Assembly (NCBI GenBank): GCA_001275005.1
Contig: JWZX01003274.1
Span: 1-53,188, forward strand
DNA: 53,188 nt
DNA from: Chrysochromulina tobinii
Taxonomy: Eukaryota
Direction: 5' to 3'
Shown: piece by piece, positions 26,730-48,104 of the stretch
Numbering within the stretch: position 1 is the first letter of the stretch
Layout of the letters: each line of letters opens with the position of its first letter
The notes under the pieces: generated by a model
Database searches by the model: none
The model's input: only the letters and a program-made list of their open reading frames with translations
Told to the model about the DNA's origin: nothing
Position numbers and translations under genes: made by a program

Positions 26730-29008
26730 TCAGTCATAGATGGGGCAGAAGACGCCCATTCCCTCGCAAAAGATCCCTGGATCGTTAAAGCGTCGCCCCT
26801 GGTCTAGGCTCGCCATCGCCGCCATCTGGGCATCGCTGAGCACAAAGCCGTCCAGATCGAGATTCTCGACGAGGCGATCGGGTTTGGATGACTTGGGTAC
26901 AATCGACAGACCGCGCTGCAACGCCCACCGTAGCACCACCTGTGCTGGGCTCACACGGATCTCCGACGCCAACCCGACCACCGTCGGGTGCTGGAGTGCC
27001 GAGTCGCCGGCCGTCGCACCGCCCAGCTCGATGTACGATCCAGCGCCCAGAGGTGAGAAGCCCGTGACAGCGAGGCCGTTCTCGGCCGCATAGCGCAGGA
27101 GCTTAGGCTGTTGGAGGTACGGGTGCAGCTCCACCTGCAGCACCTCGGGAGCGATGGTTGCGTACGAGAGCAGATCCCGCAAGCCGGCCGTATTGAAATT
27201 GCAGACGCCAATATGCTTGGCTAGTCCTTTAGGGATGAGGCCCTCCATTGCCCGCCACGTCTCCGAGAGGGGCACGGGCTCGAGCTCCATCGTTGGCTTG
27301 GCGGCGCCGGGATCGAAGATCCATTCAGGTGGGTAGCGCGTCTCGAACGGCACGAACTTGAGCGAGATGGGGAAGTGGATGCTGCGAAGGTGTGAGTCGA
27401 TCGCAAGGACCATCACGGAGCAAGCCACGCGCCAGGGTGTGGCATCTGCATGCATATGAAAGCGCACGGCCCCCCTCACAGGTAAAGGTCGACGTAGTCA
27501 AGTCCAAGGTCAGCGAGTGTTTTGCGGCAGGCAGCCTCGACGTGCTCGACGGCATGGTACGTGTTCCACAGCTTAGATGTCACCCACAGCTCGTCGCGCG
27601 TCACCAGCCCCTCGGCCATAGCCCGCCTGATCCCCTCTCCCACCTGAACCTCGTTGCCGTAGTCGCAAGCCGAGTCAAGGTGACGATAGCCCGCGCGGAT
27701 CGCACATACGACAGTATCGGCGCACACGTCCTTGGGCACCTTCCATAGGCCGAGGCCGATGGCAGGCATCTTGGCACCACTTCGCAGCGTCAGGCTGCGT
27801 ATGGTTGGGGACAGCGCTCGTGTCAGCCCCGCGTGACCGCTTTCATCGGACGCGGTCCACGGCGGCAGGGCCGCTAATGGTAGGTCCTTGCCAGGCGGCG
27901 GTGCCCAGAGCGACGCGAGCACGCGACGAGGCCCCTCGTAAGATTGTCGTGAGTGGAGGGCCTTTCGGTTGTCGAGGAGTAGGACATCACCGGCCTGCCA
28001 AGGAAACGCGACGCAATGGTCGCGCAGGTACGCGCCAACGCTCTCGAGTGCCGCCCGTGCCTCCGCATCCAGCGCCGTCCCGTCACCGTACACCACCGCC
28101 TTGGCCGGGTCGTTACGGACGTCGATCCAGCCTTGCGTCGCGGCGACGACCGCGTTGAAGAACATCTCGCGGCCGGTGGCGTCGTGGTGCACGAGAGCGG
28201 GCATCCGTGGAGTCACAGTTCGCACGTCGCCGCCGTCGAGCCACGTGTACTCGATCCCCGCCGCCTCCATCGCCGCCTCCGCCTCCTCGCGACTATTCGC
28301 CATATACGATGCCCGCCAACCCTTGCCGAGGGGCGAGCTCGGGTCATTATGCTCGGGAAGCGTGCGCACATAGCGCACGCCGAGGCGGCGCAGGCGGTCA
28401 GCGACGGCCGAGTGGTGGGCTTGCAGGTGTTCCGCAACGGCGAAAGACGGGATGATCGGTGTCGCGCCGCCCGAGGCTGCCGGCCGCTCGCAGAAGAAGA
28501 ACACGTACGCCGGCGGCTCTATGCACTGTGCCATCTCGTGGTGGAAAGGGATGGGCTCCGAGGGCGGCGCCTCGTTGGCGGTGAAAACGCCCGGAGCGAC
28601 ATTCGTGCGCGGCGCCGCGCTGCATCCCATCGCAAACGGCCCGAGCTCGAGGTTCGATGCAAAGCGCGAAAAATCCATCGCTGTCGCAGAACCCCCGAAA
28701 CCTCGCAGCAGCACCGCATCGTACTTCTCGATGAGGGCCAGGAGCGCGCCACGATGAGCAGCACTCCATTCGGCGAGCGAAGCTGTCATCGCCTCGGCTG
28801 GAGCGATGGTCAACGGGAATGTTCGACCCTCAAAGCTGCGCTGCTCGGCGATGCTCACAGCTTTGCAGCCCACCGTAGCGGCTGCTCCATCGTCGTCCGC
28901 GTGCCCGGACGTAATGTGCTCGACGCGTCGAGCCCCTGCTGCAATCTCGTAAGCGTTCCGTGTGCGCGGCTTTACAGGTGCTGGCATATTTGGCGGAGGG
29001 GTCCGCAT
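26730..29008 (-). CDS. Fusion of a TauD/clavaminate-synthase-like 2OG-Fe(II) dioxygenase and an aldo-keto reductase (xylose/sugar-phosphate reductase-like); exons 29008-27480 and 27381-26730
   Basis: Dioxygenase motifs PIPFHHEMAQ and WQAGDVLLLDNRKALHSR. AKR motifs MPAIGLGLWK, DSACDYGNE, SKLWN, GVCNF, QVELHP, IVPKS. The 98-nt GT-AG intron 27382-27479 restores the canonical DLYLIHFP. Confidence 0.9.
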
Positions 29009-29369
29009 GGCTCAAAATTTCGAGCCAGGCACGAGGACGTCTGACTGATTGGTTCTGGCGACCGGGTCGGGTCCTGGATTGCGCGAGAGGTAGCGATCGC
29101 TTTTAGGACGAGTTTTTGACGAAGCGCATAAATTGACGAAACACAAGGGCGCTGCGCGAGTTCGTCAGCTCTTTTTGGTTGACACCTGAGAGAGCCTCTA
29201 ACCCTCTCGCACTGCCTTGCATGCACCACGAATATATGAAGTTTTCGTCGTTGCGCCCGTAAAGAAGAGCGACCTTCCCGAAGGCACGGCGGGCGGCTAA
29301 GGGCGGCGGTCGACCCTTCGAACGTGAACGTGGACGTTGTGGTCCGGTGTGGCGTTGGGGAGCGTGTGA

Positions 29370-32300
29370 ATGGTATTCGTTTCTCGGCGCGAACAGCGCA
29401 CATCCCCAACGGCGCGCTGGGCGAAGCTGAGGACCTATGCGAAATCGCTCGCGGCGGTGTGCATCACCTTGGCCGATTGTCCCAGCCTGAAGCCGCCAGA
29501 GCCGCCTCGCCGGGGCGGCAGCGTACAACAGCACTCTGGGTATATTGACAAGCTGCGCACTGGTGTCAAGGGCATGGGAGCTCTTGTTGCATTCGACATC
29601 AAGGCAAGCACACGGACAGCAGCAGTAGAGGCCGAGCAGTTGTTGGATGCGGGAGGCGTTGTGACCTCCGTTGACGATGCTGCTGACCTCGAAAAGACGG
29701 AGTACTGGCAGCAGGGCGATGCGAGCCTCGCGACCAAGGAGAAGATGGAAGCGCGGCAAGCGCTTCGGTATAACAAGCACGTGCTGGCAGCGCTGCAGCT
29801 GTACTGGGAAGCAGCACAGCGCAGCTTGCACTCGGGGGGTGACCCTTCCGCGAACGAGCTGCATCAGGAGGGCCATGCCCTTATGCTGCGGCGCATCTAC
29901 CGCGTGATGATCAAGGACTTCGACCCTGCAGATTGTGAGCGCTGCATCGCCGAGGACTGGGCTCGCGACGCCAAGGGAAAGGATCTGCTGACTCGTAAAG
30001 CATTCTGCGACGCGTTCTTCGAGCTGGCGGATACGTGGACGGCTGGCATCGACGCTCGTGAGTATGCGGCATTCTTGCGGACTCTCTTCGACTCTGTCAC
30101 CATCCAACGACAGGTCCGCGGACCCGACGGGCAGGTGATGATGGTCGCCTTTGTCTGGAAGGACGAGGTCGAGTGTGTGTTTGACGAAACGTACGCAGAG
30201 GAGGAGGAGGAGCAGGTCGAGGAGAGGAAGCCAGTGAAGATCGACGAGGGGCAGGTCGCCGTGATCCAGGAGAGCGGAGAAGTCGTCGAAGCCTCTTGTG
30301 CACCAAGCTCAACAAAGCAGGCTCCCGTCGCGATGAAGCCACCTCGGGTTGCCAAGGACGAGAGCGCCCCAGAGCCAAAAGTCGAACAGACTACAGGCGA
30401 AGCTGAACCCACCGAAGCTCCCGTCGCGAAGAAAAGGTCGCCGCGGAAGGCCAAGGAGAGCGCTCCGGACGCACCAGATGGCAACGTACAGCCAACCGAT
30501 AAGCCCGTGAAAGACTATCGCGCGAAGGCCAAAAAGAAGGGAAGCAAGAAGAAGAAGGACGAGGAGGAGACGAGCACTCAGAGTAAGGCAGTCATAGTTG
30601 TGCAGTCGATGCAACGTAAGAACAAGGCCGTGAAGAAGAAGAAGGAGCGCGAGAAGGCAGTCGTCACCATCACGAAGCATGCTGCCGCGAAGGCGGAGAA
30701 TGTCAAGAAGAAGCGTTCAACCCAGCCGGAAGGGCCGGTCTTGTCCGAGAGTCGGAACCGCGAAATGAACGGCGAAGGGAGTGGTGTCGCTGGTACGCGC
30801 GGGCAGTTGCAGTACTGGGCGCTCCGCAAGGGGCTACCGCCTCGGCTACAGGAAGTCTTTGATGAGCTCCCTACTCAGGATCAATTAGCGGTGGCCAAAC
30901 TCTCACAAGAAAAGCGACTCAAGTTCCTCCGCATCCAAGCCATCAATGTGGAGAGTTTCAACTTCACAACTGAGCAACGGGCTCAGCACGTCGAGGCGCG
31001 CAGAGGGCTTGATCCTCGTCTGCGAGCGGTGTTTGACGACCTGATGAGGGCCGATCAGCTCGTCGTCGCATTCATGACGCTTGAGAGGCGTGTACTCTTC
31101 CTCCAGCGGCGAGCAGACTTGATCGACCGCGGCTTCGGATGGGGGCTCAGAACACAAAGGCCGCTCCGTGAGCGCATGTTGCAGCGCGCTGTTCTCTGGG
31201 CGCAGGCCGAAGGCGGCGCGGTTCAGCACGCGATCAGCGCCGCTCTCTATCGAGCCTTCTCCCTAGGTCTTGGAACCGGTAAGGATGCTGCCAGCAAGGA
31301 CGGTACGATCGAGTCACCCTCGATTGGCGTCCAGATGGCGGGAACGGGGGCGCTCGAGCACGCCAAGTTGAGCCCACGCGGCTTTGCTTCTTACGCGGTT
31401 GGCGTCGGGTTCACTCGAGCCATCAAACGTGGTAGTGTCAAGGGGGGTGCAAGCAAAGGAGCCGGCGTGGACGCTGCTATCGCATCCTGGATGGGCGTCC
31501 CGGTAGCGCTTGAAGACGCTAAGTTCAGCCCACTCGCCTTCGCGTCTGCGCTGCGGCCCAACCGCGCAGCAGCAGCGCTGGGGCCGTTGGCAGTTGCTGC
31601 AGCGGCGCAGCAGAAGGCAGCTAGTTCCACGAGAGCTCCGGCACCGCCGGACGAGTTCCCTTGTACCTCGGTCACCAAGGAGATGCTTGACGGGGCGAGC
31701 CTACGCCGATTACTCTTCCAGACGGACCATGCGCCGTCACCCCCGCAGCTCCCACGACAAGAGCGCCCCCGGAGCTCGAGGCTGGCCCGGGGTCACGACG
31801 GTCCTCTTCCATCGCCACTCCACGCCTTCACGGCCTTCAGCAGTCTCAACTTCAGCAGTGGTGCTCGTCGGCATACAGGCATTGGGCCGGAAGGCAAGGT
31901 GATGATGACGTGCTCTCAAGCCGGCACTTTGCTTGAGCTGGATCGGCGTGCTCGATCCTCAAGCGTCCACTCGAAACTTTCGTTCCCACGGCCCACCATT
32001 GTCGACATAGACATCGACTCACCTCGGCCCATTGACGAAGTTGACGAAGCTCGCCGCCTCAGTACACCCTCTCCCAGGATCACCACCACTGCACCACCCA
32101 CCGACGAGGACGTCGACGAGTTGGTTGACCTGCAGCACGAGGCCCCGATGGGCCATGCCTTGGTTAGCGAAGATGGGCTCCTGCCTTTCATCCAAGCACT
32201 TGGACCTAGCCCTGGCACCTCGGTGCGCCGCCCTTCCGCCCTGCTCCCTACCATCCTTCCACGTTCAGCGCGCCCTACTACGGTACATCTAAGGACGAAT

Positions 32301-33260
32301 AGCGGATGTGCCGTCCAAAGCGGTGCATACCGACGGACGTGCGCCTATTCGACAAATACGTCGCTCTCCGTGTCTCCGCACTCCGCGCGCTTCCTGGCCC
32401 AGGGTGGACCCGCAGCGGTGGGCCGGAGTGGTGGGCAGACGGCTAAGAGCCGCATGGAACCACGAGTAGACGCTAGCGACGCGTCGGCCCTTTCCATCTC
32501 TCCAGGCCGACCCCCAGGTCGGCCTGAGTCGGCCATCAGGTACGCAGCCTTGAGCGGAATTAGCAGCCGTCGGGAGCTGCTCGCAGAGAGGAGGGGCGCG
32601 GAGGCACACGAAGGGGATGTGATTCTGAGTCGCCCTACCTCCCCACAAGCGCGGCCTATGGATCCAGCACTCATGTTTTACTGGAACCGGCCGGGAAGCC
32701 CCGTGGGTGGGTTGCTTCCGGAACGCCGAGCAAAGTCCCCCCGGGCGCCGAATGAGGAGCCCTCGGCGGCGGATGCTGGAGCGTTGTTGCTGCGTGTGGC
32801 TCACTACGCACACGGCGTGAAGATGAGCGTACCACCTGCGCCACCAGAGACGTTGTACAGCGTGGATCTGGAGATGCAAAGCCCTCTCCACACATGCACA
32901 ACATTCTTGGACGAGTGGCGTTTTGCGCGAGACGAGCTGCACTCGCCGCTCTATCCTCAGCCAACGTCGTTCACCGAGCCTGCTCCAGCGGCCTCTCTCA
33001 CATCCGAATCAGTGGTGAGCTTCTTCGAGACCTCCGAGAAGCGGCAACGAGAAGCCATGCTCAAGACAACCGCAGCAGAGATCGCCGCAGAGATCGCAGC
33101 AGCGGCGATAGAAGAGGATTCGTGCGTGCAGATGGATGTCGAGCCGCTGTGGCAGCGACATCTCAGAAATCATGCACTACGGCAGGGCCTCCCTGATCAT
33201 GACCTTGATGCTCGTCATCAGCTCTTGCTCGGCAAACTAGCTGCGTGGAAGCCAGACTGA
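29370..33260 (+). CDS. Large 1296-aa protein: N-terminal helical/EF-hand-like domain, IQ-like basic segment, long disordered C-terminus
   Basis: DWARDAKGKDLLTRKAFCDAFFELADTWT segment; VIVVQSMQRKNKAVKK; uninterrupted ORF. Confidence 0.65.
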   Translation: MVFVSRREQRTSPTARWAKLRTYAKSLAAVCITLADCPSLKPPEPPRRGGSVQQHSGYIDKLRTGVKGMGALVAFDIKASTRTAAVEAEQLLDAGGVVTSVDDAADLEKTEYWQQGDASLATKEKMEARQALRYNKHVLAALQLYWEAAQRSLHSGGDPSANELHQEGHALMLRRIYRVMIKDFDPADCERCIAEDWARDAKGKDLLTRKAFCDAFFELADTWTAGIDAREYAAFLRTLFDSVTIQRQVRGPDGQVMMVAFVWKDEVECVFDETYAEEEEEQVEERKPVKIDEGQVAVIQESGEVVEASCAPSSTKQAPVAMKPPRVAKDESAPEPKVEQTTGEAEPTEAPVAKKRSPRKAKESAPDAPDGNVQPTDKPVKDYRAKAKKKGSKKKKDEEETSTQSKAVIVVQSMQRKNKAVKKKKEREKAVVTITKHAAAKAENVKKKRSTQPEGPVLSESRNREMNGEGSGVAGTRGQLQYWALRKGLPPRLQEVFDELPTQDQLAVAKLSQEKRLKFLRIQAINVESFNFTTEQRAQHVEARRGLDPRLRAVFDDLMRADQLVVAFMTLERRVLFLQRRADLIDRGFGWGLRTQRPLRERMLQRAVLWAQAEGGAVQHAISAALYRAFSLGLGTGKDAASKDGTIESPSIGVQMAGTGALEHAKLSPRGFASYAVGVGFTRAIKRGSVKGGASKGAGVDAAIASWMGVPVALEDAKFSPLAFASALRPNRAAAALGPLAVAAAAQQKAASSTRAPAPPDEFPCTSVTKEMLDGASLRRLLFQTDHAPSPPQLPRQERPRSSRLARGHDGPLPSPLHAFTAFSSLNFSSGARRHTGIGPEGKVMMTCSQAGTLLELDRRARSSSVHSKLSFPRPTIVDIDIDSPRPIDEVDEARRLSTPSPRITTTAPPTDEDVDELVDLQHEAPMGHALVSEDGLLPFIQALGPSPGTSVRRPSALLPTILPRSARPTTVHLRTNSGCAVQSGAYRRTCAYSTNTSLSVSPHSARFLAQGGPAAVGRSGGQTAKSRMEPRVDASDASALSISPGRPPGRPESAIRYAALSGISSRRELLAERRGAEAHEGDVILSRPTSPQARPMDPALMFYWNRPGSPVGGLLPERRAKSPRAPNEEPSAADAGALLLRVAHYAHGVKMSVPPAPPETLYSVDLEMQSPLHTCTTFLDEWRFARDELHSPLYPQPTSFTEPAPAASLTSESVVSFFETSEKRQREAMLKTTAAEIAAEIAAAAIEEDSCVQMDVEPLWQRHLRNHALRQGLPDHDLDARHQLLLGKLAAWKPD

Positions 33261-33489: not shown

Positions 33490-36400
33490 ATGCCGCCAAG
33501 CTTGAGTGTAGGCGACACCGAAGAGCTGAAGCGGAAATCTGCCCATCAGCTCATGCAACTGAGCCAGCTGCTGATGGCGCGCGATCGAGAGCTCGAGGAA
33601 CTCAACGAAATGGTGTCCCTTCTCAAGTCCCAATTGGGCATCTCAGGTGCCGAGGATGCAAAGGAGGTGCTGAAGGCCATCGAGGCCCATGTTCGAGCAA
33701 CCGAGGGCAAGCTGCAGCAAGCGGTACGGGAGACTGAAGTGCTCAAGCAAGGGGAGGAGGCGGCGGAACAGTCCGTGGCCGAGGCTATGGCAGCCGTTGA
33801 GAAGGTGGTTGCGACGGCAGAGGCGGCCGCAGCAAAGGCGATCGCTGCGGCGGAGAAACGGGCTACGGATGCGGCGGCTGATGCGGCCGCTGCGGTCGCC
33901 GCGGCGGAGGAGGGCGCAGCAAAGGCGATCGCTGCGGCGGAGGTTTGGGCAGATGAAGAGATCCAAGAGGCCAAGGAGAAGGCCGAGGAGCTCGTACGCC
34001 AGGCCCAGGCCGAGGCAGCCGCACGCCGGGGCGATCTCGAGAAGGTCCAGAGCAGTGCCCAGAGCGCGCTGGAGCAGCAGAATAAGTTCCTCAAGCAGTC
34101 TGAGGATGCGCTCACACGGACGCAGCAAAAGCTCAAGAGAGCCGACGGCACCCGCTCGTTGCTGAAGAAGCGCGACGAGCTCATGCGGATTCAGGAGGCC
34201 ATCCATCGGCTTCAGGCGATGGATATGGTGCCCCGGCTGGAGCCCGCGCCGGTACCCGATGAGCCCGAGGAGAAGGAGGAGTACGAGGACGACGAGGACG
34301 AGGACGACGAGGACGACGAGGACGACGAGGACGACGACGAGGAGGACGACGACGACGAGGAGGAGGAGGAGGAGGAGAACAGCGACAATCCGGTGAGGCC
34401 CCGACCCCTGCCGCGCTTGGCCCCACAACTTGGCTTGCGCCACTGGCGCCTTGGTACTCTCCCCCATCGTACCCCTCGTACCCTCCCCCCTCGTACCTAC
34501 CTCGTACCCTCCCCCATCTCACTGAGCGTGTGAGGTGCGCTCCCGCCTTGTTTGCAGGCGGACGACCTTCTGGCGACGCTGATGGCGAAGCAGCAGGAGC
34601 TCCTGCGCATGCGCCAGGCCATCTCCGAGCTGCGCCAGCTGCACGATGGCGAGCCCGCGCCTGCGCCCGCGGCCGCGGCGGCGGAGGAGGAGGAAGAGGA
34701 GGCAGAGGAAGGCGCGGAGGATGAGGCGGCGCTGCTGCAGGAGCTGCTGCAGAAGCGCGCGGAGCTGCAACGCATGCAGGCGGCCATCCAGCAGCAGGTG
34801 GAGATGCGAGCGACCACGCTGGAAGAGGCCAAGGAGGAGTACAAGCGCAAGGGGCAGGAGACCCGCGAGGCGATCGAAGGGCAGAAGAATCAGATTAAGG
34901 AGCTTCAGCAGAGGGTGAAGAGCGAGGTAGCCAAGACCGCGGCAGCCCGTGCCGAGGAAAGAGAGGCTGCAGCGAAGGCGGTGGCGGCGGCGGAGGCGGC
35001 CGCAGTGCTGAAGGTTGCTGCGGCGGCGGAGGCTGCAGCGAAGGCAGTTGCCATAAATGAGGCCGCCGGATCGCACTACTTCGCTGCAGCTGAGGCAGCC
35101 GCAGCGAAGAAAATTGCCGCAGCTGAGGCGGCGGCAGCTGAGGCGGTGGCGGTGGCGGAGGCGGGGGCAACGCAGGCAGCGGCCAATGCGGCGCAGGCGG
35201 TGGCTGCTGCGGAGGCAGCCGCAGCGCAGGCACTGGCGCAGGCGGCACAGAGCGTGCGGGGTCAGCTGGAGGAGAAACTAGAGGTGACCCTTTCGGCCAA
35301 GAACGCGCAGATCGACGCTCTGCGATTGGAGCTGAACCAAGCGACCAGGAGCGCGCAGGCCGAGACGCTGCGGCTAGAGCTGAGCCAGACCACACAGATC
35401 GACGCGCTGCGATTGGAGCTGGCCCAAGCGGAGGCGCGGCATGCATCGGCTAGCCGGCTGCTCGAGGCGCGGGTGGTCCAGGTGATGGAGGATGCGGCGT
35501 ATGAGGTGGCCAGCATGCGCGCGCTCGTGGACGCGGCGCACAGCGATGCGCGCGAGTCCGTCAAGCTTGGCTTGCTCGAGGCTCAGGAGGCAGCGCTGCG
35601 CCTCGCACGCCAGCTCGACGTAGCTCTGGGAAGGGCACCTTTGGCGGAGGCGGAGTTGATCACGCAGTTTGAGCGGGCGAATGCTGCGCTGCTGATGCCT
35701 GCTGGGAGCGGGCACGCGTTCCTCGCGCACCAAAGTCACCCGGCGCTCGTGCACAAGATCGGCAAGGAGAACGACGAGGGCGATGGGCTGCCCGATACGC
35801 TTGTCTTTCAGAGCATGAAGGCGACACGTCTCACCCAGAGGCGTGCTTCGCTCGACTTCGAGGCCGAAGGGGTGCCGAACGAATCTGTCGTTGCGACGGC
35901 TATTTCGAATACAGCCGCTGCGTCGGCTGATACCGATCCGGCCTCGGCAGGCCCATCTCCTGCTTGGTCCGCGGCTGCGGCCGACCGCCTCCGGTCCGAG
36001 ACGGTTGATGCTCAGCCATCGGGTCTGAATCTGCCCAGCGCGAGGGCCATCGACTGGGGGGAGCCTTCGGACGACGACGAGGTCGGGGACGAGGCGCACT
36101 CTCATGCGACACAGAAGAAGAACGCCACGCGTCTTGGCGATTTGGAGGCGGCGCAAATTGAACTCGCACAGAGGAACGCAACGCGCCTGGCCGATGCACA
36201 GGCGGCTCGAATTGAAGCCACGTGGACCGCACAGAGAAATGCAGAGCGCATCACCATCGCCGCACAGAGGAATGCAGCGCGCATGTCCGAGTTGCGGGCG
36301 GCGCTTGCGCAAGCGGTCGAGGCCGAGGACTACGACAGGGCAGCCGAGCTGCAGCCTCAGATTCATGAGCTGCGTTTGGCGACAATCGACCTTGCTACAA

Positions 36401-36603
36401 GAGAGGGTGCAGCTGTCGCGGCAACTGCACCACCCGCAGCGGCGTCGAGCGCCGCGGGCGTAAATGTCGCCACGGTGGCTGATGGAAACGTTGTCTCCAA
36501 GCCCAAGCCACTCGACAAGCCGCCCGTACAAATGTGCTCGACGTTTGACCATGGTCCGCAGCAGCGTCAAGGAGCAGGACTCGCGCTACAGAGCATGGAC
36601 TGA
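33490..36603 (+). CDS. Coiled-coil protein with acidic tract and C-terminal UVR-like motif; exons 33490-34392 and 34558-36603
   Basis: GT-AG intron 34393-34557 (ccg|gtgagg...tttgcag|gcg) joins two ORFs in frame; LAQAVEAEDYDRAAELQPQI matches the UvrB/C coiled-coil motif. Confidence 0.75.
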
Positions 36604-39886: not shown

Positions 39887-42800
39887 TCATGCATTTTCGG
39901 GATTATGCTCCGCGGCAACCGACAGAAAGATCTCCTCCAGCCGTGGCTGCGAGCACGCATAGTCCTGAATACCGAGGGCCGCCTTGTTCTTCTCGAGGGC
40001 CTCGAAGACCTCAGGGAAGCCGTGGCGGTCCGATGGGATTCGGAACTTGATGACTTGCCGATGGTAGTCGGCTACCTTCGCGCCAGGGAAGAGGCTCATG
40101 ATCTTGGTCTTGGTGGCCTCGACGTGGGAGGCGCGCTCGAGCGAAGGAGGATTGGCGACCGTGCCGTTGGCTGCGCCCGTGCCGTTGTCCTCCCCCCCTT
40201 CCTCGGCGACGCGAACTTCGAGGCTAAGCTCGTTGCCGAAGCGCGACTTAAGGTGCTGCTGGCCGCCGATGCAGCGCATGTGGCCGAGGCTCATGATACC
40301 GATGCGCGTGCAGAGGGCCTCGCACTCCTCCATCGAATGACTCGTGAGGATGATGGCACGGTGCTGCCGCTCGCGCGTCAGCACGTCCCACATACGGCGG
40401 CGCGCCACCGGGTCCATTCCACTCGAAGGTTCGTCAAGGAAGACCACCGGCGGCGCGCCGATCAGCGCGACGGCGAGCGAGAGCTTGCGCTTGTTGCCGC
40501 CCGAGTAGGCGCCCGAGGGCTTATCCGCATGGGGCGTGAGCGAGACTTGCTGGAGCAATTGGGTGATGAGAGGGCCCGCCTCATGGGCTGGGATGCGCTT
40601 GAGCCTCGCGAACATCCACAGGGTCTCCCGACCAGTCATGAGCTCGAGCAGCGGGTCGAATTGGGGACAGTAGCCGATCCGTTGGCGCACCTGCTCGAGC
40701 TCCCGCACCACGTTGTAGCCGCAGATGCGCGCCTCGCCGCTGCTCGGGAGGATGTCGCCGGTCAGCATGGCCATCGTCGAAGTCTTTCCCGCGCCGTTGG
40801 CACCCAGTAGACCGAAGCACTCATGGTGGCCGACGGCGAAGGAGAGGTCGGCAACGGCCACTTTGGGTGGCGCGCCGCCGCGTGCTGCGTAGGCCTTGCG
40901 AAGGTGATGGATGAGCAATGCGGGAACCTCGGCATCGGCCCCGTCGGCTTCCTCTGTGTCTGCCGTGCTGGTCCGGCTCGCCCGGGACATAGAGCGCTGG
41001 TACGCGTCTTCGGCCGACTCACTGCGTGCTGCCGCGATGGCCGCTACGATGGCCTCGACCCGAGCGCACTCCGCCACGACGTCAGGGTCGTCAGGCGTAA
41101 GCCCTGCTCCGGTCGCACGCGACAAGTCTGAATTGGCGCCCCGCCAGCGGAGGAATCGCTCGTACACGATGGCGAGGACGAGGGCGATGGGCAACAGCGC
41201 GAGGGCGGAGAGCATGTCCAGAGGTGCGCCCACCACGAGGCAGACCGTAACGATCAAGACGGCGGCGGTGAGCATTTTTGAGGGGCCGCTGCTGAAGCCA
41301 GCTCCACCGATGCCATTGGCGCTGCCGCCGCCGAGGACGCAGCCCGCCACGAGACCGACAATGCGGCGGATGCGTGGCGTCTCGAGGCGGCCGGCGATGG
41401 CTCGCTGGTGCTCGAGGAGGAGGAGCAGGGACCAATAGCCAAGGGCATGGAGGGGGAAGAACCGGAGGGCGCGGCCCGCCGCATCGTCGTCCCAGACACT
41501 CAGACATCCGCCCAAACACCCGCCCAGCGCATTCGTGTACCATGTGCGTGTGAGACCGAGAAGGGCCTCGCCAACTACGTAGGTCGGAAACATGCGGTAC
41601 ACTAGGAGCAGTCGCTGGTCAATATCTTGGGCTTTGTCAATCCGGGACATGATGAAGTGCGCAATCACCGCAGCGAATCCCGTGGCCAAATTGAGCATGA
41701 GCGTGGCAATCTGCGCCGTCGAGTGCGACTCAAAGAGAAAGGAGAAGCAGTAGATCATCGGGAGCACGGACGCGCCGTAGCCGAGGAGCACAAGGTACGT
41801 GGCGAGCGCCTGGTCCGAGTTGCCGACGTAGCCGGGCTCGCCATAACAGAAGAATACGAGCATGCAGCAGCTCGCTGTGAAGGTGAACAGCGTCAAATCC
41901 CACAGGTACGATGCGAGCCAATACACCGCCGGGCCTGCTCCCGAGACGAGCTGTAGATGCTTTGCCTTGACGGCGCGCTCCTTGACCACGAAGACAGCGG
42001 CGGAGGCGGGGATGTAGCAAAAGGGGATGAGCACAAAAAGCGCCGCTAGGGTTGCGAGGATGAGCTTGATTGTGAGCTCCTGGGTACCCGTCAGCGGGAG
42101 TGGGTGGTTGTACACCGCATAGCTCTCCTCCGCGGGCGACGAGCCCGCTGTCGGCGGGGGCGGCGCGCCGTGAATCTGCCGCCAACGCGCCGCGGTCACC
42201 TCTGCGAGATACGAGGGGAGCGCGTGCCACGACGACGTGTTGTGAAGGATGGTTAACGGCCAGCTCATGGAGACGTTGTGGGGTCGCTCCGCGGGGATCG
42301 CGGTGTCATCCGAGATGGTGTACTCGTAATTGCCTCTCCCGGTGTGCACATCTCCCACTGCGATCTCGACACCAGAAAAGGACATGGTGCTCCTGCTCAT
42401 AAAAAAGGACGAGATGTTCGCGGTGACGGGCAGCGAAGAGACGTTAGAGGTGTTACCGATCTGTGCCAAGGCCGTGAAACGTATGCCATTGATGGTCGTC
42501 GAATTCTGCCTGACGTAGATCTCCTGCATCTGGATCGTCGGCGAGGCGAGAAACAAGTTGGGACCCGCTGCCGTGGCGAAGCCAGTGTCGATTGAGTTCG
42601 GCGCACCACCTATCTGCCAGACCGTTCCCTCAAGCTCCGTGAGCCGCACCGTCTGCCCATTTTCGATAGCGAGCAGCCGCGGATCTGCAAAGGCGATTGC
42701 AACCACGAAGGCGGGCACTCCTGAGATATTGGCTAAGGTATTCACCCTTTCCCTTGTAATGGGGAAGATTTGGAAACCGTCGGGAGCAATCGAGCTGAAG

Positions 42801-45800
42801 ACAACCTCCGCAACGAGCTCAATAAGCACCGAGGCCAGGGGCTGGTCGTCCACACGAATATTGCCAACGACATCGCTCTCCAAGCTGACATCGTCTGTTC
42901 CTGCGTCGGCGATGCCGATCGCCCGACCGCTGGCCTCACAGAGCGCTGTGAGCCACGGGCTGGTACTAGCTCCATCCCCGCTGCTCGCGCCGAGTGCGTT
43001 GTTGAACGCTTGGCTCGCGTCGGCTGCAGCCTGTAGAGACGCCTGAGCTTGAGCGGCGATCTGCGGCTGGACGACATTCCATAGCAACAGCCACGGGGCA
43101 ATCGGATAGTCCGGAGGAAGAGGCAGGGGTATGCCAGCTTGCAACATTCTGCGCGATCCGGCGCCCGTGGGCGTCGCGTTCGCGCTACGTTCGGCCGAGC
43201 GCAAAGTCGCAGTGGCCAATCCATTGAGCGCGCAGAAGAACACCACGGCACTCGCACCCTGAGCCACCAGCGGCTTGAAAAGGTAAGGGAGCGTGCCGCC
43301 GCTCAGCACGCGCGCACGCAGCTCGTCGTCCACGGCGAGGGCTCCCATGCGAGGGACCTTGCCGTGCCCCAGTAACGTGTGCTTCAGGTACTCGGAGAGG
43401 CCATCGCTGTCGGCCACGTCCATGCATTTGGGGGAGAGCACCTGGCTGCTCATCTGACGGGTGAGCGGCGAGGCTGCGGGCAGGTTGGTCACGAGCTCCG
43501 AGATCGCACCTCCACCAAGCAGCGCCGCGTTCATTTGGATTCGAGGACCCGCCAGCGGCACGTTGATCACAAGCACGAGCAGCCCGAGGCACACGAGGCC
43601 AATGGGCATCAGCTGCTGCGTGGCGAGTGTCTTAAGGTCGCGGCGTGTGCAGCACATCCGTTTCCACAGCATCAGGCGCAACGTCTTCAGCCATGCCACG
43701 ACATCGGCAACGAGGACAGCGAACTTGCCTGAACCGGAAGCCCCCTTACCCCCCCTACGCCATTCCGCCCACTTGTGTTGACGATTGGTGGACGGAGATT
43801 GTGACCCTGGGCTGCCAAACTTCGCGGTCCTCTTCCTCACCGCGCCTTCATTCTTCTCCATCTTCGCCGCCGCTCCATTTTTCTCGGGCGGTGACATCAC
43901 GGGGTCGTCGTCGATTGCAACCTCAACCATGGAAACGCCGCTCAATTTGTCGGGGCTGCTCGGGCCGGTAGGCGTGACCGCCTGCATCTCGACGCCCTCC
44001 GACGGACCACCGCCGCCACCCTTCTCGCCGCTGCTCGTTGACGTGGCTTCCTCGTCGATCAGCGCCCTGAAGCGGCCGGTTCGAAAGAGCCGCCTACGTG
44101 CATATCGGGCTTTAAGGGCTACATCGCGCCCAAAGGCGGCCTCGATCGCCGCCTCCATCCCGCCAAGGTGCCGATCCGGCCCACCGCCTTGCACCGAGGC
44201 CTCCTCTCGTTTGGCTAGCTCAATGAACACCTCCTCGAGCGACGAGATGGACATACCGTGCCCTCGAAGCCCTAGCTCCTCGGCGGCAGCGTCCAGGTAC
44301 CGAAGGAGAGCCGCAAACTGGGGGGCCGCATCGAGCGGCAAGCGGAAACTCAGTTCATCGCCCGCCTCGGAGAGCAGCTCAATGCGCGAGACGAAACTCT
44401 GCAGCTTCCGCGCGACTTCTTGCGCGTACACCTTTGTGTTTGCCTTGATCATCGTGAGAGTGTACCCGAGCCCGAAACGGCTCTTCAGAAAGAGAGCCGA
44501 GCCGCAGCAACGCACCTTTCCGGCGCTCATGATCGCGATGCGATCGGCGAGCATGTCGGCCTCATCCATGTAGTGCGTCGTGAGCACGAGTGCGCGCCCC
44601 TTCTTATTACGCTGCAGCAGCTCCCACATGCTGCGGCGTGCGCCGGGGTCCATCCCCGACGATGGCTCATCGAGCAGCACTGCCGTCGAGCCGCCAATCA
44701 GCGCACAACCGACGGAGAGCTTGCGCTTCATGCCGCCGCTGAGCGCGCGCGAGCGTGCGTGTACCTTCGCGCCCAACCCTACGTCATCGGCCACCTCGAG
44801 GGCTGCCTTGCGTGCCTCGGCTGGCTTCAGGCCCTTGAGCTCAGCGTACAGGTGTAGGTGCTCAAGCACTGTGAGCTCGGGCCAAATCACATCGTGCTGT
44901 GGACAGACGCCAAGGCACTGGTAGACTTGCCGACGCGAAGTGGAGATCGAGTGCCCGAAGACGATGCAGTCGCCCGATGAAGCCGGGTAAAGGCCGCAGA
45001 GCACGGAGAGCGTCGACGTCTTGCCCGCGCCGTTGTGGCCGAGCACGCACGTGATTTGTTCCGACGCCATGGAGAGGCTGAGGTCATCGACGGCGAGCTT
45101 GCTGTAAGGCCCGCTGCCGTACCGTTTCGTCAAGTGCACGATCTCGATGCTCGGCAGTTTGCGCACCTCGTCCGCCATCGGCTCGAAGGCGATGCACTGG
45201 CTGGCATCGCGGCTGTCGGCGCTCGCGCCCTCTGTGGGGACTCCAACGGTAACCATCTGGGTGTGGCTCGAGCCGGTGCGCCACCACCGTGGGAGTAGGC
45301 AGAAGCAAGGATGCTCACTCGCACCGAATTTGGAAGGCAGCGCGCGCTCGAAGTAGAGGAAGAGGAGGAAGTAGAGCAAACAGTCGAGCGCCATCATTCC
45401 CAGGCAGGTGCCAAACGTATACGAATCGCGCGTAGACGGCTCGATCGTGACGCTCCGTTCGGCGTGTTCATACTCGGCCAGGATGTCGGCTCCAAATGCG
45501 AAGGCGGAGGGCAGCAGTAGCGAGGTCAGAACCTTGGCCGAGCTTTGCTCGAACGAGTTCGAGCCGAAGAAAATGTACTTGGGGAGGACCGTGCCAATGA
45601 AGACGACAGGCGCAGCGACGGCGGCGAGCTTGCCGTTCGAGAAGAAGGTCGAGAGCAGAAGTGAGAGGGCAAAGGAGCCAAGGGAGAAGAGGCCGACGTA
45701 CGCGACGAGGAGCCCTAAGTTGGCATGGACGATGAATTGGCGCAGCATGAGCGTCAGCGAGATGGTGATCAGCGTGGCATCCAAGAGGCCGAGCAGACAC

Positions 45801-48104
45801 CAGCTAGTCACAAAGCTCGATTCGCGAAGCCCCATCATTCGCATCGTCTGCTTCAGTCGCAGCTCCTTCTCCTCTACGATCGCCTTGGTGAATTGCGCCA
45901 CTGGCAAGAGGAAACACATTGTGAGCACCAGCCCGAGTAAGAAGCCGATCGCAAGGTAGAAGTCGTTCTGTGCGTACGCAAGCGTTGGGAATGGCACAGC
46001 GACTGCGCGCGAGGCGGGAGAGCCCGCGAGCACTGCGGGCGGCGGAATGGTGGCGCCTGCCGAGGTGGCGCCCGATGCGTTGAAGGCGTATTCGTCCACA
46101 AGGGCTTGCAGCGTCAGGAAGCCGGACATGTAGTATGTCTGGTACGTGGCATCGAGCCCTTGGCCGATGCTATTTTCGAGCCAGTTGGTGTTCGGCACGG
46201 TCGAATAGTTCATCCGAATGGCGTAGCGAAGCGATGGTGCAGGCCGGGCTGTCGACGATTGAGGCAGCTCCGCAGCCTCGGGCAGCGAGTAGAAGACGAG
46301 CACGGCCCACGCGCGCTCGACCGCCTCGTGGTCCAGCACGTAGCTCACCGCGGCCTGCTCGCTTGGGTGTACCTTGATGGTGAAATTGCGGAGCAGCGCG
46401 TGGCGATTCCTGGCGAATCGCAGGAAGTCATCGACGGCCGGCGAGGCAGGTGTGACATGTAGCGTGCCAAGCGTCAGCACGTTGCCAAACTGGCGTCCCA
46501 AGTTGTTGAAGCTGATCAGGTTGGCGTAGGCGGCCGGGCTCAGATTCGCACGGAGGTTCAAGCCCACCGCCATGAAGGAATCCACAGACGGGATCGGCAG
46601 AGGTCCTTCCAGCAGAGGCGACAGACTCTCACGGATCGAAAACAAGGAGTCCTGGCTGATGACCGATGGCCGCGCCAAGGGTGCGCCAGTGCAATTGAAG
46701 GTGTAGACGCCTACGCGCCATGGGCCGCCGCACCCACCGGGGCCGCCTGAGCAGGCGTCTTTCCTGCAGTCGGCATCAGGCGCACGCTGAGCGTCGATGC
46801 GCAGCTGGTTGCCGCAGAAGCACTGATGGCCGTTCTCGACACCGGCGAGTCCAAAGCCTCTCTCGTGGCAATAAGAAGCGCACCTGATGCACACAAAGGG
46901 ATCGCGGGTCAGTGCATGCACACAAAGGGAGCGCGGGTCAGTGCACCAGCGCCAGGCCGACGAGGACGAGAAAGGGCGCGCCCATCACGGCGCCTACCAT
47001 TCTCGAGACAGAGTGCAATTGGAGGTCATCAGAGGTCATCAGAGGTCATCCCATCGCCCACCATTCTCGAGACAAAGTGCCATCCTGTGCATGCGCAGCA
47101 TTCAGTACTCGACGACTGTCGTCAATGTAGCACTGCATGCCGGCAATCGCGCAGCCCGGTGGCGATGGCGGCCGTCTGATTCGAGGGCCACAGTCGGTGC
47201 AGTCAGTGCCGAGGCTGCAATCCGAAAACTCGGATCCGGGTCCGCCATCGTTGCAAACACCATTGGAGGCGACGGTGCACGTCTCCGCGCACGTCCGCCC
47301 GTTGTTGACTTCCGTATTTTGCCGCGCCGCTCGGCAAGGCTTGTACGCCCCGGATGGATCATTGCGTTCACCGGCAGTGCGAGTTTGCATCCACCCAAAG
47401 CGCACAGCGCCCTCTCCGGAGAGCACCCTGGGCGTTTCGCCATTCGGCGCGAGGCAAGAGATGCCTAGGTCCTCAGAGTGATCCTCCTGGCAGTCTGGCG
47501 CACCCCAAACCAGCCCACCTCTACTTCCGGAGAAAGGATCTCCTTGGGTGGAGCCACACTCGGACAACATATCCTCATCGCCGTAGCATTTCATATGGGA
47601 GAGCCAAATCTTGCCTGAGCCACGGCGTTCTGCTTTCAGCCCGAACCGGCAATCACTGCGATCAACGACGTAAGGCTCCAAGCCCATCTGCCCGCAGGCC
47701 ACCCACGCGTCATTGAGCCCAAAGCTGCGGGTACAGAACGTCCCCCATTCACCCGCGTGGAAGATCTCCAATCGCCCGTCGTACACAAGGCTTTCGGGCC
47801 TGCAGGCGAGCGAATCCCATTGAGTTCGGATGGTCGGCTGGGCCCCAAAGTCGAGACCCCGCATGGTCGGCTGGGGAGACCTAAAATCGAGACCCATGTC
47901 GAGCGCGGCCGCGAGCATTGGTCCGGCCCTCAGGTGCAGCACTGCGTATGTGGCTGCACCAAATTCCTGCTTGCTGGAGTAGCTGAAGGCAAGGACGAGG
48001 ATGCTCGCCAAGAGCGGAGGGCTGAAGATTTGACACAAGGTCGTCCTAGGAGAGCGCCTCTTCAGGAGGAAATCCTTGCGCAGGACGGCGCGGAGACCGC
48101 CCAT
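39887..48104 (-). CDS. ABCA: Full-size ABCA transporter (2679 aa spliced) with SRCR, Cys-rich and WSC domains in extracellular domain 1; exons 48104-47062 and 46883-39887
   Basis: ABCA N-terminus LRAVLRKDFLLKRR plus TM1; EKE motifs; NBD1 GHNGAGKT/LSGGMKRKL/LDEP; NBD2 GANGAGKT/YSGGNKRKL/LDEP. The 178-nt GT-AG intron 46884-47061 joins LSREW|CASYC in frame. Confidence 0.9.

Follow-up and report, generated by a model that had tools for sequence, protein, structure and literature searches.

A gene on the minus strand of contig JWZX01003274.1 of Chrysochromulina tobinii (assembly GCA_001275005.1), at positions 39887–48104 of the 53,188-nt stretch analysed (this whole stretch being the window), raises the question of whether a single ABCA-type lipid exporter can carry SRCR, Cys-rich and WSC modules in its first extracellular loop and, if so, what these modules would do there. 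An initial annotation, made from the sequence alone, had proposed this architecture and interpreted it as a receptor-transporter hybrid that binds glycans or microbes. The architecture is real and rare, and an ABCA protein with these modules has not previously been described in the literature searched, in which no account of an ABCA with either SRCR or WSC was found; supplements of genome papers, which lay outside this search, may list it. The available portion of a paper treating SRCR fusions covers lysyl oxidases only (PMC4448552). The modules and the exons that encode them are the following.

47062–48104, minus strand: coding part of exon 1 (ATG at 48104), encoding the first transmembrane helix (TM1), SRCR, the Cys module and the 5′ part of WSC; covered by gap-free RNA contigs.
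47454–47786, minus strand: SRCR body (aa 107–217) with six group A Cys, the first strand missing and four of six cation-site ligands replaced (Pfam, alignments).
47388–47414, minus strand: downstream strand (aa 231–239) predicted to lie in the SRCR first-strand site (motif scores, split-domain model).
47181–47291, minus strand: 37-aa mobile module with six Cys (aa 272–308; six-Cys pattern search, no Pfam match).
46697–47138, minus strand: WSC domain (aa 323–410), split by the intron (Pfam, Cys count after splicing, PDB match).
46884–47061, minus strand: intron, 178-nt GT-AG, phase 2, within the WSC domain (frame, RNA contigs).
39887–46883, minus strand: coding part of exon 2 up to the stop codon (frame, Pfam, RNA contigs).

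Removal of 46884–47061 from the minus strand joins two open reading frames (ORFs) into 8040 nt that encode 2679 aa with a single terminal stop. Many GT/GC-AG pairs would keep the frame; RNA shows this one only. Exactly these 178 nt are skipped by RNA contigs of runs X8, X10, X6 and X11, i.e., four of the eight runs examined (of 18 listed), which represent three studies, X10 and X11 belonging to the same one. All are freshwater or mixed-culture samples, and the other four have no contig over the joint, which reflects holes in coverage and is not evidence against splicing. The RNA evidence consists of assembled contigs, the longest of which cover part of the gene. Thus, X11 contig 3 (845 nt, from a poly(A) library) runs from 47499 over the joint to 46495, corresponding to aa 202–478, and links the end of SRCR, the Cys module, WSC and the start of the conserved core of the first extracellular domain (ECD1), while SRCR and TM1 are covered by overlapping gap-free contigs (X6 records 29 and 30). 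No further canonical joint was seen in exon 1 in the RNA contigs examined. These observations confirm a spliced, transcribed, full-length ABCA gene and the intron as originally placed, including the joint 47062/46883. The intron also contains a duplicated stretch ahead of its 3′ splice site, and its part at 47015–47050 is a short 10-nt tandem repeat, judged to be genome-wide because it has contig depths of hundreds to thousands in the RNA runs.

The SRCR domain of the annotation is confirmed. Pfam model PF00530 reaches 60.3 bits (cut-off 26.1; E = 2.4e-16), and this match together with six conserved Cys places the domain in group A. It matches CD163, SCARA1, Mac-2BP, DMBT1 and MARCO, and it has the six Cys and the core motifs in common with group A SRCRs (MARCO, SCARA1/5, SALSA/DMBT1 and Mac-2BP; CD163 is in group B). 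Unlike these, the window copy resides within a transporter loop, has lost the cation site, and lacks the N-terminal first strand, which is predicted to come from downstream. Ahead of the domain, at ~47840–47900, is a 12-aa in-frame duplication that does not occur in the sister sequences P0090, P0096 and P0097.

The missing strand points to a circular permutation. In canonical SRCRs, such as those of P0037 and P0027, the first strand (EG..RL..G) is located four or five residues ahead of GRxE. In all four ABCA-borne proteins compared, upstream scores for this motif are negative, and no first strand precedes GRxE; profile matches begin at position 8–12, and a motif resembling EG..RL..G is found 13–19 residues past the last Cys. 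This downstream motif is significant in the P. parvum protein, where it ranks first of 174 windows and is matched by 14 of 2000 shuffles, and suggestive in P0263, where it ranks second of 155 and is matched by 111 of 2000. For the window protein itself it is not significant (1222 of 2000; outside the top five), which speaks against a permutation there. An AlphaFold2 model of P. parvum residues 1–509 (predicted local distance difference test, pLDDT, 67; predicted TM score, pTM, 0.43), built on an alignment of depth 29 (A4) picked from 22 candidate additions such that the SRCR rows aligned, forms the motif into a strand at 207–216. The SRCR of this model superposes on MARCO with a TM score of 0.74 over ~90 columns, and the Foldseek matches listed for it are all SRCR domains. 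The window module region folded as a single sequence reached a pLDDT of 34. When aa 103–219 and 220–254 of the window protein were modelled as two chains, the score was 0.66 versus 0.41 for the best of three controls, with at least 78% contact agreement between runs and a partner pLDDT of at least 58; in these models aa 232–241 lie antiparallel on 108–115, and E113 pairs with R235. The mark used was reached by 51 of 78 solved versus 2 of 108 mismatched microbial pairs and, for eukaryotes, by 39 of 65 solved versus 2 of 126 mismatched pairs, in a benchmark that contains no peptides; likeness to solved SRCRs alone could suffice for a pass. The modelling thus predicts a circularly permuted SRCR in which the downstream strand fills the first-strand site. 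We read this as the outcome expected when a tandem SRCR array is cut out of register, the alternative being that the strand is a remnant of a second domain. Nothing relevant on circularly permuted SRCRs was found in the literature, as judged by listing; the predicted permutation would be of interest for how the SRCR fold is shuffled.

According to the available parts of a study of SALSA, ligands are bound via D1019, D1020, E1086, D1058, D1059 and N1081, the substitutions D1019A or D1020A abolish binding, and the cation site so formed binds polyanions and a bacterial protein (PMC7043408). With this numbering transferred by motif spacing, the six positions hold T, R, S, H, D and E in the window protein, so that the dual cation site is not preserved: T125, R126, S169 and H170 replace the Asp pairs. 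The 11 cluster members compared agree (T, R, S, H, with R for H in one, D, E). P0263 has D, D, D, D, D and E, and in both P0263 and P. parvum all six residues are acidic. The lineage with WSC and the Cys module is the lineage without the cation site.

The Cys-rich module, annotated correctly, proved to be a 37-aa six-Cys unit (47291–47181) of a mobile kind. A strict six-Cys pattern recovers 49 copies in 27 of 34 matching proteins, alongside trypsin, VWA, kinase, peptidase and other domains, and these include proteins of Chrysochromulina parva and P. parvum. No match to LNR/Notch (PF00066) was obtained at E values up to 1 in exon 1 or in five multi-copy carriers; a likeness to LNR/Notch is a lead only, drawn from Atlas neighbours of the module (0.82) in which 23% and 43% of the members carry Notch. 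Another transcript contig (X11 record 5) holds a copy of the module (47180–47271) with 7 differences in 92 nt, which suggests recent copying within the genome. The WSC domain spans the intron, as had been predicted: the 3′ part by itself gives PF01822 33 bits (cut-off 27.8), and all eight Cys are complete only after splicing. Its best PDB match is Kremen1 (E = 2e-4). It has the eight Cys in common with the WSC domains of Kremen1, yeast Wsc1 and the fungal lectin SiWsc3, and differs from them in being a single copy within an ABCA loop. As far as the available text of PMC9024836 goes, single WSC domains have no obvious glycan pocket, the WSC domain of Kremen acts in protein complexes, and the three WSC domains of SiWsc3 bind beta-1,3-glucan together; on this account, glucan binding is not general for single WSC domains.

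The annotation of the remainder as a full ABCA transporter also holds. Pfam finds two ABC_tran, two ABC2_membrane_3 and one R1_ABCA1 domain in the product, i.e., two halves, each with one transmembrane domain (TMD) plus one nucleotide-binding domain (NBD), and a large exoplasmic domain follows the first helix of each half. ECD1 (615 aa) and ECD2 (492 aa) contain 13 of the 15 N-glycosylation sequons counted. Walker A, Q-loop, signature, Walker B Glu and H-loop are present and intact in both NBDs. At the C-terminus, one R1_ABCA1 stretch scores 47.2 bits against a cut-off of 27, and a first-half copy of this regulatory domain did not pass the cut-off alone. The transporter elements are as follows.

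47979–48041, minus strand: TM1 (aa 22–42; hydropathy, and a profile match to ABCA7 3–41, weak alone).
45962–46636, minus strand: conserved ECD1 core (aa 431–655; core search, profile alignment).
45332–45955, minus strand: rest of TMD1 (~aa 658–865; hydropathy, Pfam).
44477–45145, minus strand: NBD1 with Walker A, Q-loop, signature, Walker B Glu and H-loop (Pfam, motif check).
42077–43609, minus strand: TM7 and ECD2 (~490 aa, with a long variable insert; motif and sequence inspection).
41147–42070, minus strand: rest of TMD2 (~aa 1953–2260; hydropathy, Pfam).
40262–40918, minus strand: NBD2 with all catalytic motifs (Pfam, motif check).
39947–40132, minus strand: C-terminal regulatory domain (R1_ABCA1 model; Pfam).

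This layout, TM1-ECD1-TMD1-NBD1-TM7-ECD2-TMD2-NBD2-R, is that of human ABCA3, ABCA1, ABCA7 and ABCA4 (PDB 7w01, 5xjy, 8edw, 7lkp), with which the ECD1 core can be aligned; the best PDB matches of the P. parvum orthologue are human ABCAs (E = 4.7e-247 for ABCA3). In contrast with the window protein, which has all three modules, SRCR, WSC and the Cys module are not reported for the human proteins in the portions of their descriptions available, where ECD2 measures 270–290 aa compared with ~490. Family membership lets us infer ATP-driven lipid flipping or extrusion; the family profile lacks basic residues at the five lipid-facing positions of ABCA7, and the substrate of ABCA7 is therefore not transferable. 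The long variable insert of ECD2 (42077–43546, minus strand) is 488–663 aa in five proteins of the haptophyte clade versus 137–221 aa in several others. SRCR, WSC and the Cys module are all absent from it; a beta-rich stretch around aa 1755–1875, conserved in part, gave no family (best Atlas match 0.76, nothing usable).

Hydropathy and profile alignment place the modules in the first extracellular loop, where the annotation had put them, between TM1 and a segment matching ABCA7 291–319 and 417–576. In this family profile, TM1 corresponds to ABCA7 3–41, an LGTLH segment to 291–319 and the core to 417–576, so the slot would belong to the N-terminal part of ECD1, which in ABCA1, ABCA4 and ABCA7 forms most of the tunnel and lid. 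Among 83 sequences that have both anchors, slot length varies from 9 to ~380 aa (median ~52), compared with ~370 aa in the window protein; the automatic anchor is wrong in at least 3 of these 83 rows. A motif R-R/K-(x)-L occurs in the slot of 18 of the 83 sequences (shuffle mean 6.3, maximum 16), a count mostly from one clade and inflated by relatedness, and also at aa 1592–1596 in ECD2 of the window protein. It resembles the RXL processing sites of diatoms, and the loops may be cleaved.

Searches with the WSC-ECD1 region gave 19 matches among 7493 candidates of 1300–4139 aa, of which only P. parvum KAL1523856.1 combines SRCR with ABC and only the window's own cluster combines WSC with ABC. 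Searches with aa 1–245 gave three matches among 729 candidates of 193–616 aa: the own cluster, P0262 (a probable chimera) and P0263, a single unspliced ORF of 321 aa from a third species, which runs from TM1 through SRCR into the beginning of the ECD1 core (53% identity). The P. parvum protein (AB1Y20_018777, UniRef A0AB34JR38) is an ABCA with SRCR in the same slot and with the same downstream strand; its gene model has no WSC or Cys module, and its cation site, unlike that of the window copy, is intact. It is public, with a precomputed SRCR match, and is named only hypothetical protein or ycf16. In three sister sequences of the window gene (~90% identity), every module as far as the same intron is retained, as are 18 of 18 exon 1 Cys. 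No SRCR was found in the Diacronema, ochrophyte and liverwort orthologues scanned, nor in a sister group of ten sequences, eight of which have a short slot. A tree of the ECD1 core (the core search gave 294 representatives and listed the best 150) places the window protein among haptophytes, with Diacronema outside and P. parvum closer (support 96/97 and 97/94). The clade of the window protein with P0099, P0098, P0100 and P0101 has support of 100/99; P0099 is probably the continuation of P0263, since their ends overlap and their contigs agree in length. In the close relative P0100, the slot upstream of the core holds another kind of stretch, with seven Cys and no Pfam match. A link of this clade to P. 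parvum has support of 80 in a quick tree (77 rows). A single gain of SRCR in a haptophyte ancestor is favoured because slot, missing first strand and downstream strand are all shared.

Eight of the 22 neighbouring ORFs have a Pfam match (these include GH127, Na/Ca exchanger, TYW3, TauD, SDR and methyltransferase), and no functional link to the ABCA gene was seen in this Pfam survey. One stop-to-stop frame (27479–29011, minus strand) holds a TauD dioxygenase and, after it, the beginning of an aldo/keto reductase. Two long frames, of 1296 and 689 aa (29370–33257 and 34534–36600, both plus strand), have no Pfam match.

How ABCA pumps engage outside partners is debated even for the human proteins. 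In our opinion, the best explanation of the modules, held tentatively and with rather more doubt than conviction, is that they are an accessory docking arm that holds the exporter on a self-made partner. The SRCR, the six-Cys module and WSC would form this arm on the first exoplasmic loop; it would hold the pump on a lipid acceptor or a surface or vesicle glycoprotein made by the cell, and lipid export would take place at the docked partner. SRCR would have been gained once in a haptophyte ancestor; the window lineage would later have lost the calcium site and acquired two further modules, which would amount to a change of partner. Most orthologues have the slot without modules, and the modules are therefore considered accessory to transport. 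The ABCA extracellular domains are described, in the available parts of three papers, as built of base, tunnel and lid layers and are themselves proposed to bind the acceptor (PMC8219669, PMC9890230, PMC8666613).

Several observations weigh against the docking arm. The modules are rare, as the annotation had expected: of 163 sequences scanned with local profiles, three have an SRCR (window, P. parvum, P0263), and the window is the only one with WSC and the Cys module, it being noted that many of the 163 are fragments and that the window was in all three training sets, P. parvum in that for SRCR and P0263 in none. Among 37 metagenome loci, modules occur only in three (L001–L003) that show no difference from the window over 2304 nt and are thus not independent; none of the 34 others has them, 26 of these having TM1 upstream and no modules. 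Transport, therefore, needs no modules. The slot accepts low-complexity inserts of 9 to >250 aa, and its ABCA7 291–319 boundary scores 1.7 bits alone, being collinear only. The clade link to P. parvum appears in 19% of bootstrap trees in a careful tree (27 rows), and the loss of four of six cation ligands may be decay.

An alternative, which we consider unlikely, is that the arm binds foreign surfaces, so that contact with prey or microbes is coupled to lipid flipping at the engulfment site. As far as the available parts of these sources go, ABCA7 and the scavenger receptor LRP1 lie together in phagocytic cups (PMC2064260), Chrysochromulina tobin has no wall and is phagocytotic (PMC4580454), and a prasinophyte ABCA2-like gene is up with feeding (PMC11217555). 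P. parvum and P0263 retain the site by which SALSA binds polyanions and bacterial protein, and the SRCR-free orthologues of Diacronema, ochrophytes and a liverwort also fit this alternative. However, the loss of four of six calcium-site ligands weakens microbe binding by the canonical route for the window copy, a single WSC is a weak glycan binder by the partial account cited above, and the sister group of ten does without SRCR, mostly with a short slot. The receptor-transporter hybrid of the initial annotation stands in its fusion, topology and rarity, and is weakened in its binding of glycans or microbes. The ABCA7/LRP1 and CED-7/CED-1 engulfment pairs, in which an ABCA acts with a scavenger-type receptor, offer a functional analogy only, being separate proteins rather than the one chain of the window; LRP1 and CED-1 are not known to be SRCR-based.

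It is similarly improbable that the modules are tolerated passengers or a spacer, that is, mobile Cys-rich units in a permissive loop that lack a specific ligand and are retained mainly because they serve folding, size or resistance to proteases. The wide range of slot lengths, the promiscuity of the Cys module and its near-copy in another transcript, the different Cys-rich stretch of P0100 and the lost cation site would all agree with this. It is at odds with an SRCR kept at one site between proteins (window and P. parvum) that are 47% identical in ECD1, with the conservation of all six acidic ligands by two of the three SRCR lineages, and with the full set of Cys in the sister sequences.

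That the architecture is an artefact of two separate genes, mis-assembly or removal of the modules from mature RNA is very improbable and largely refuted: a stop at 47046 closes the unspliced exon 1 frame, databases call a separate 352-aa protein, and chimeric-looking contigs lie near the region (P0262, L004, X2 record 22), but the spliced contigs of three studies, one of them covering aa 202–478, exon 1 without another canonical joint, and TM1, SRCR and core in a single chain in P0263 and P. parvum contradict both the separate-gene and the spliced-out versions that had been named as refutations. As separate observations, P0262 has exon 1 sequence and an MBOAT domain on one contig and is probably an assembly chimera, and in L004 and X1 record 7, which may be the same data, an unrelated ORF in another frame is joined at 46624 to the ECD1 core (window 46171–46624), either as a chimera or as a duplicated fragment.

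The docking arm, if present, would consist of recognisable soluble binding domains in an otherwise short loop, and the proteins with no module, with SRCR, and with SRCR and two further modules form a natural deletion and swap series for studying it. The modules can be expressed as pieces and screened for ligands. A prey ligand, if there is one, would open the recognition of prey by mixotrophic haptophytes to molecular study. Should the haptophyte group have a receptor-transporter hybrid, its distal ECD a swappable cassette on a permuted SRCR through which prey or microbe contact steers lipid flipping at the engulfment site, an outcome we regard as doubtful, it would unite in one chain the partnership that animals have in ABCA7/LRP1 and CED-7/CED-1.

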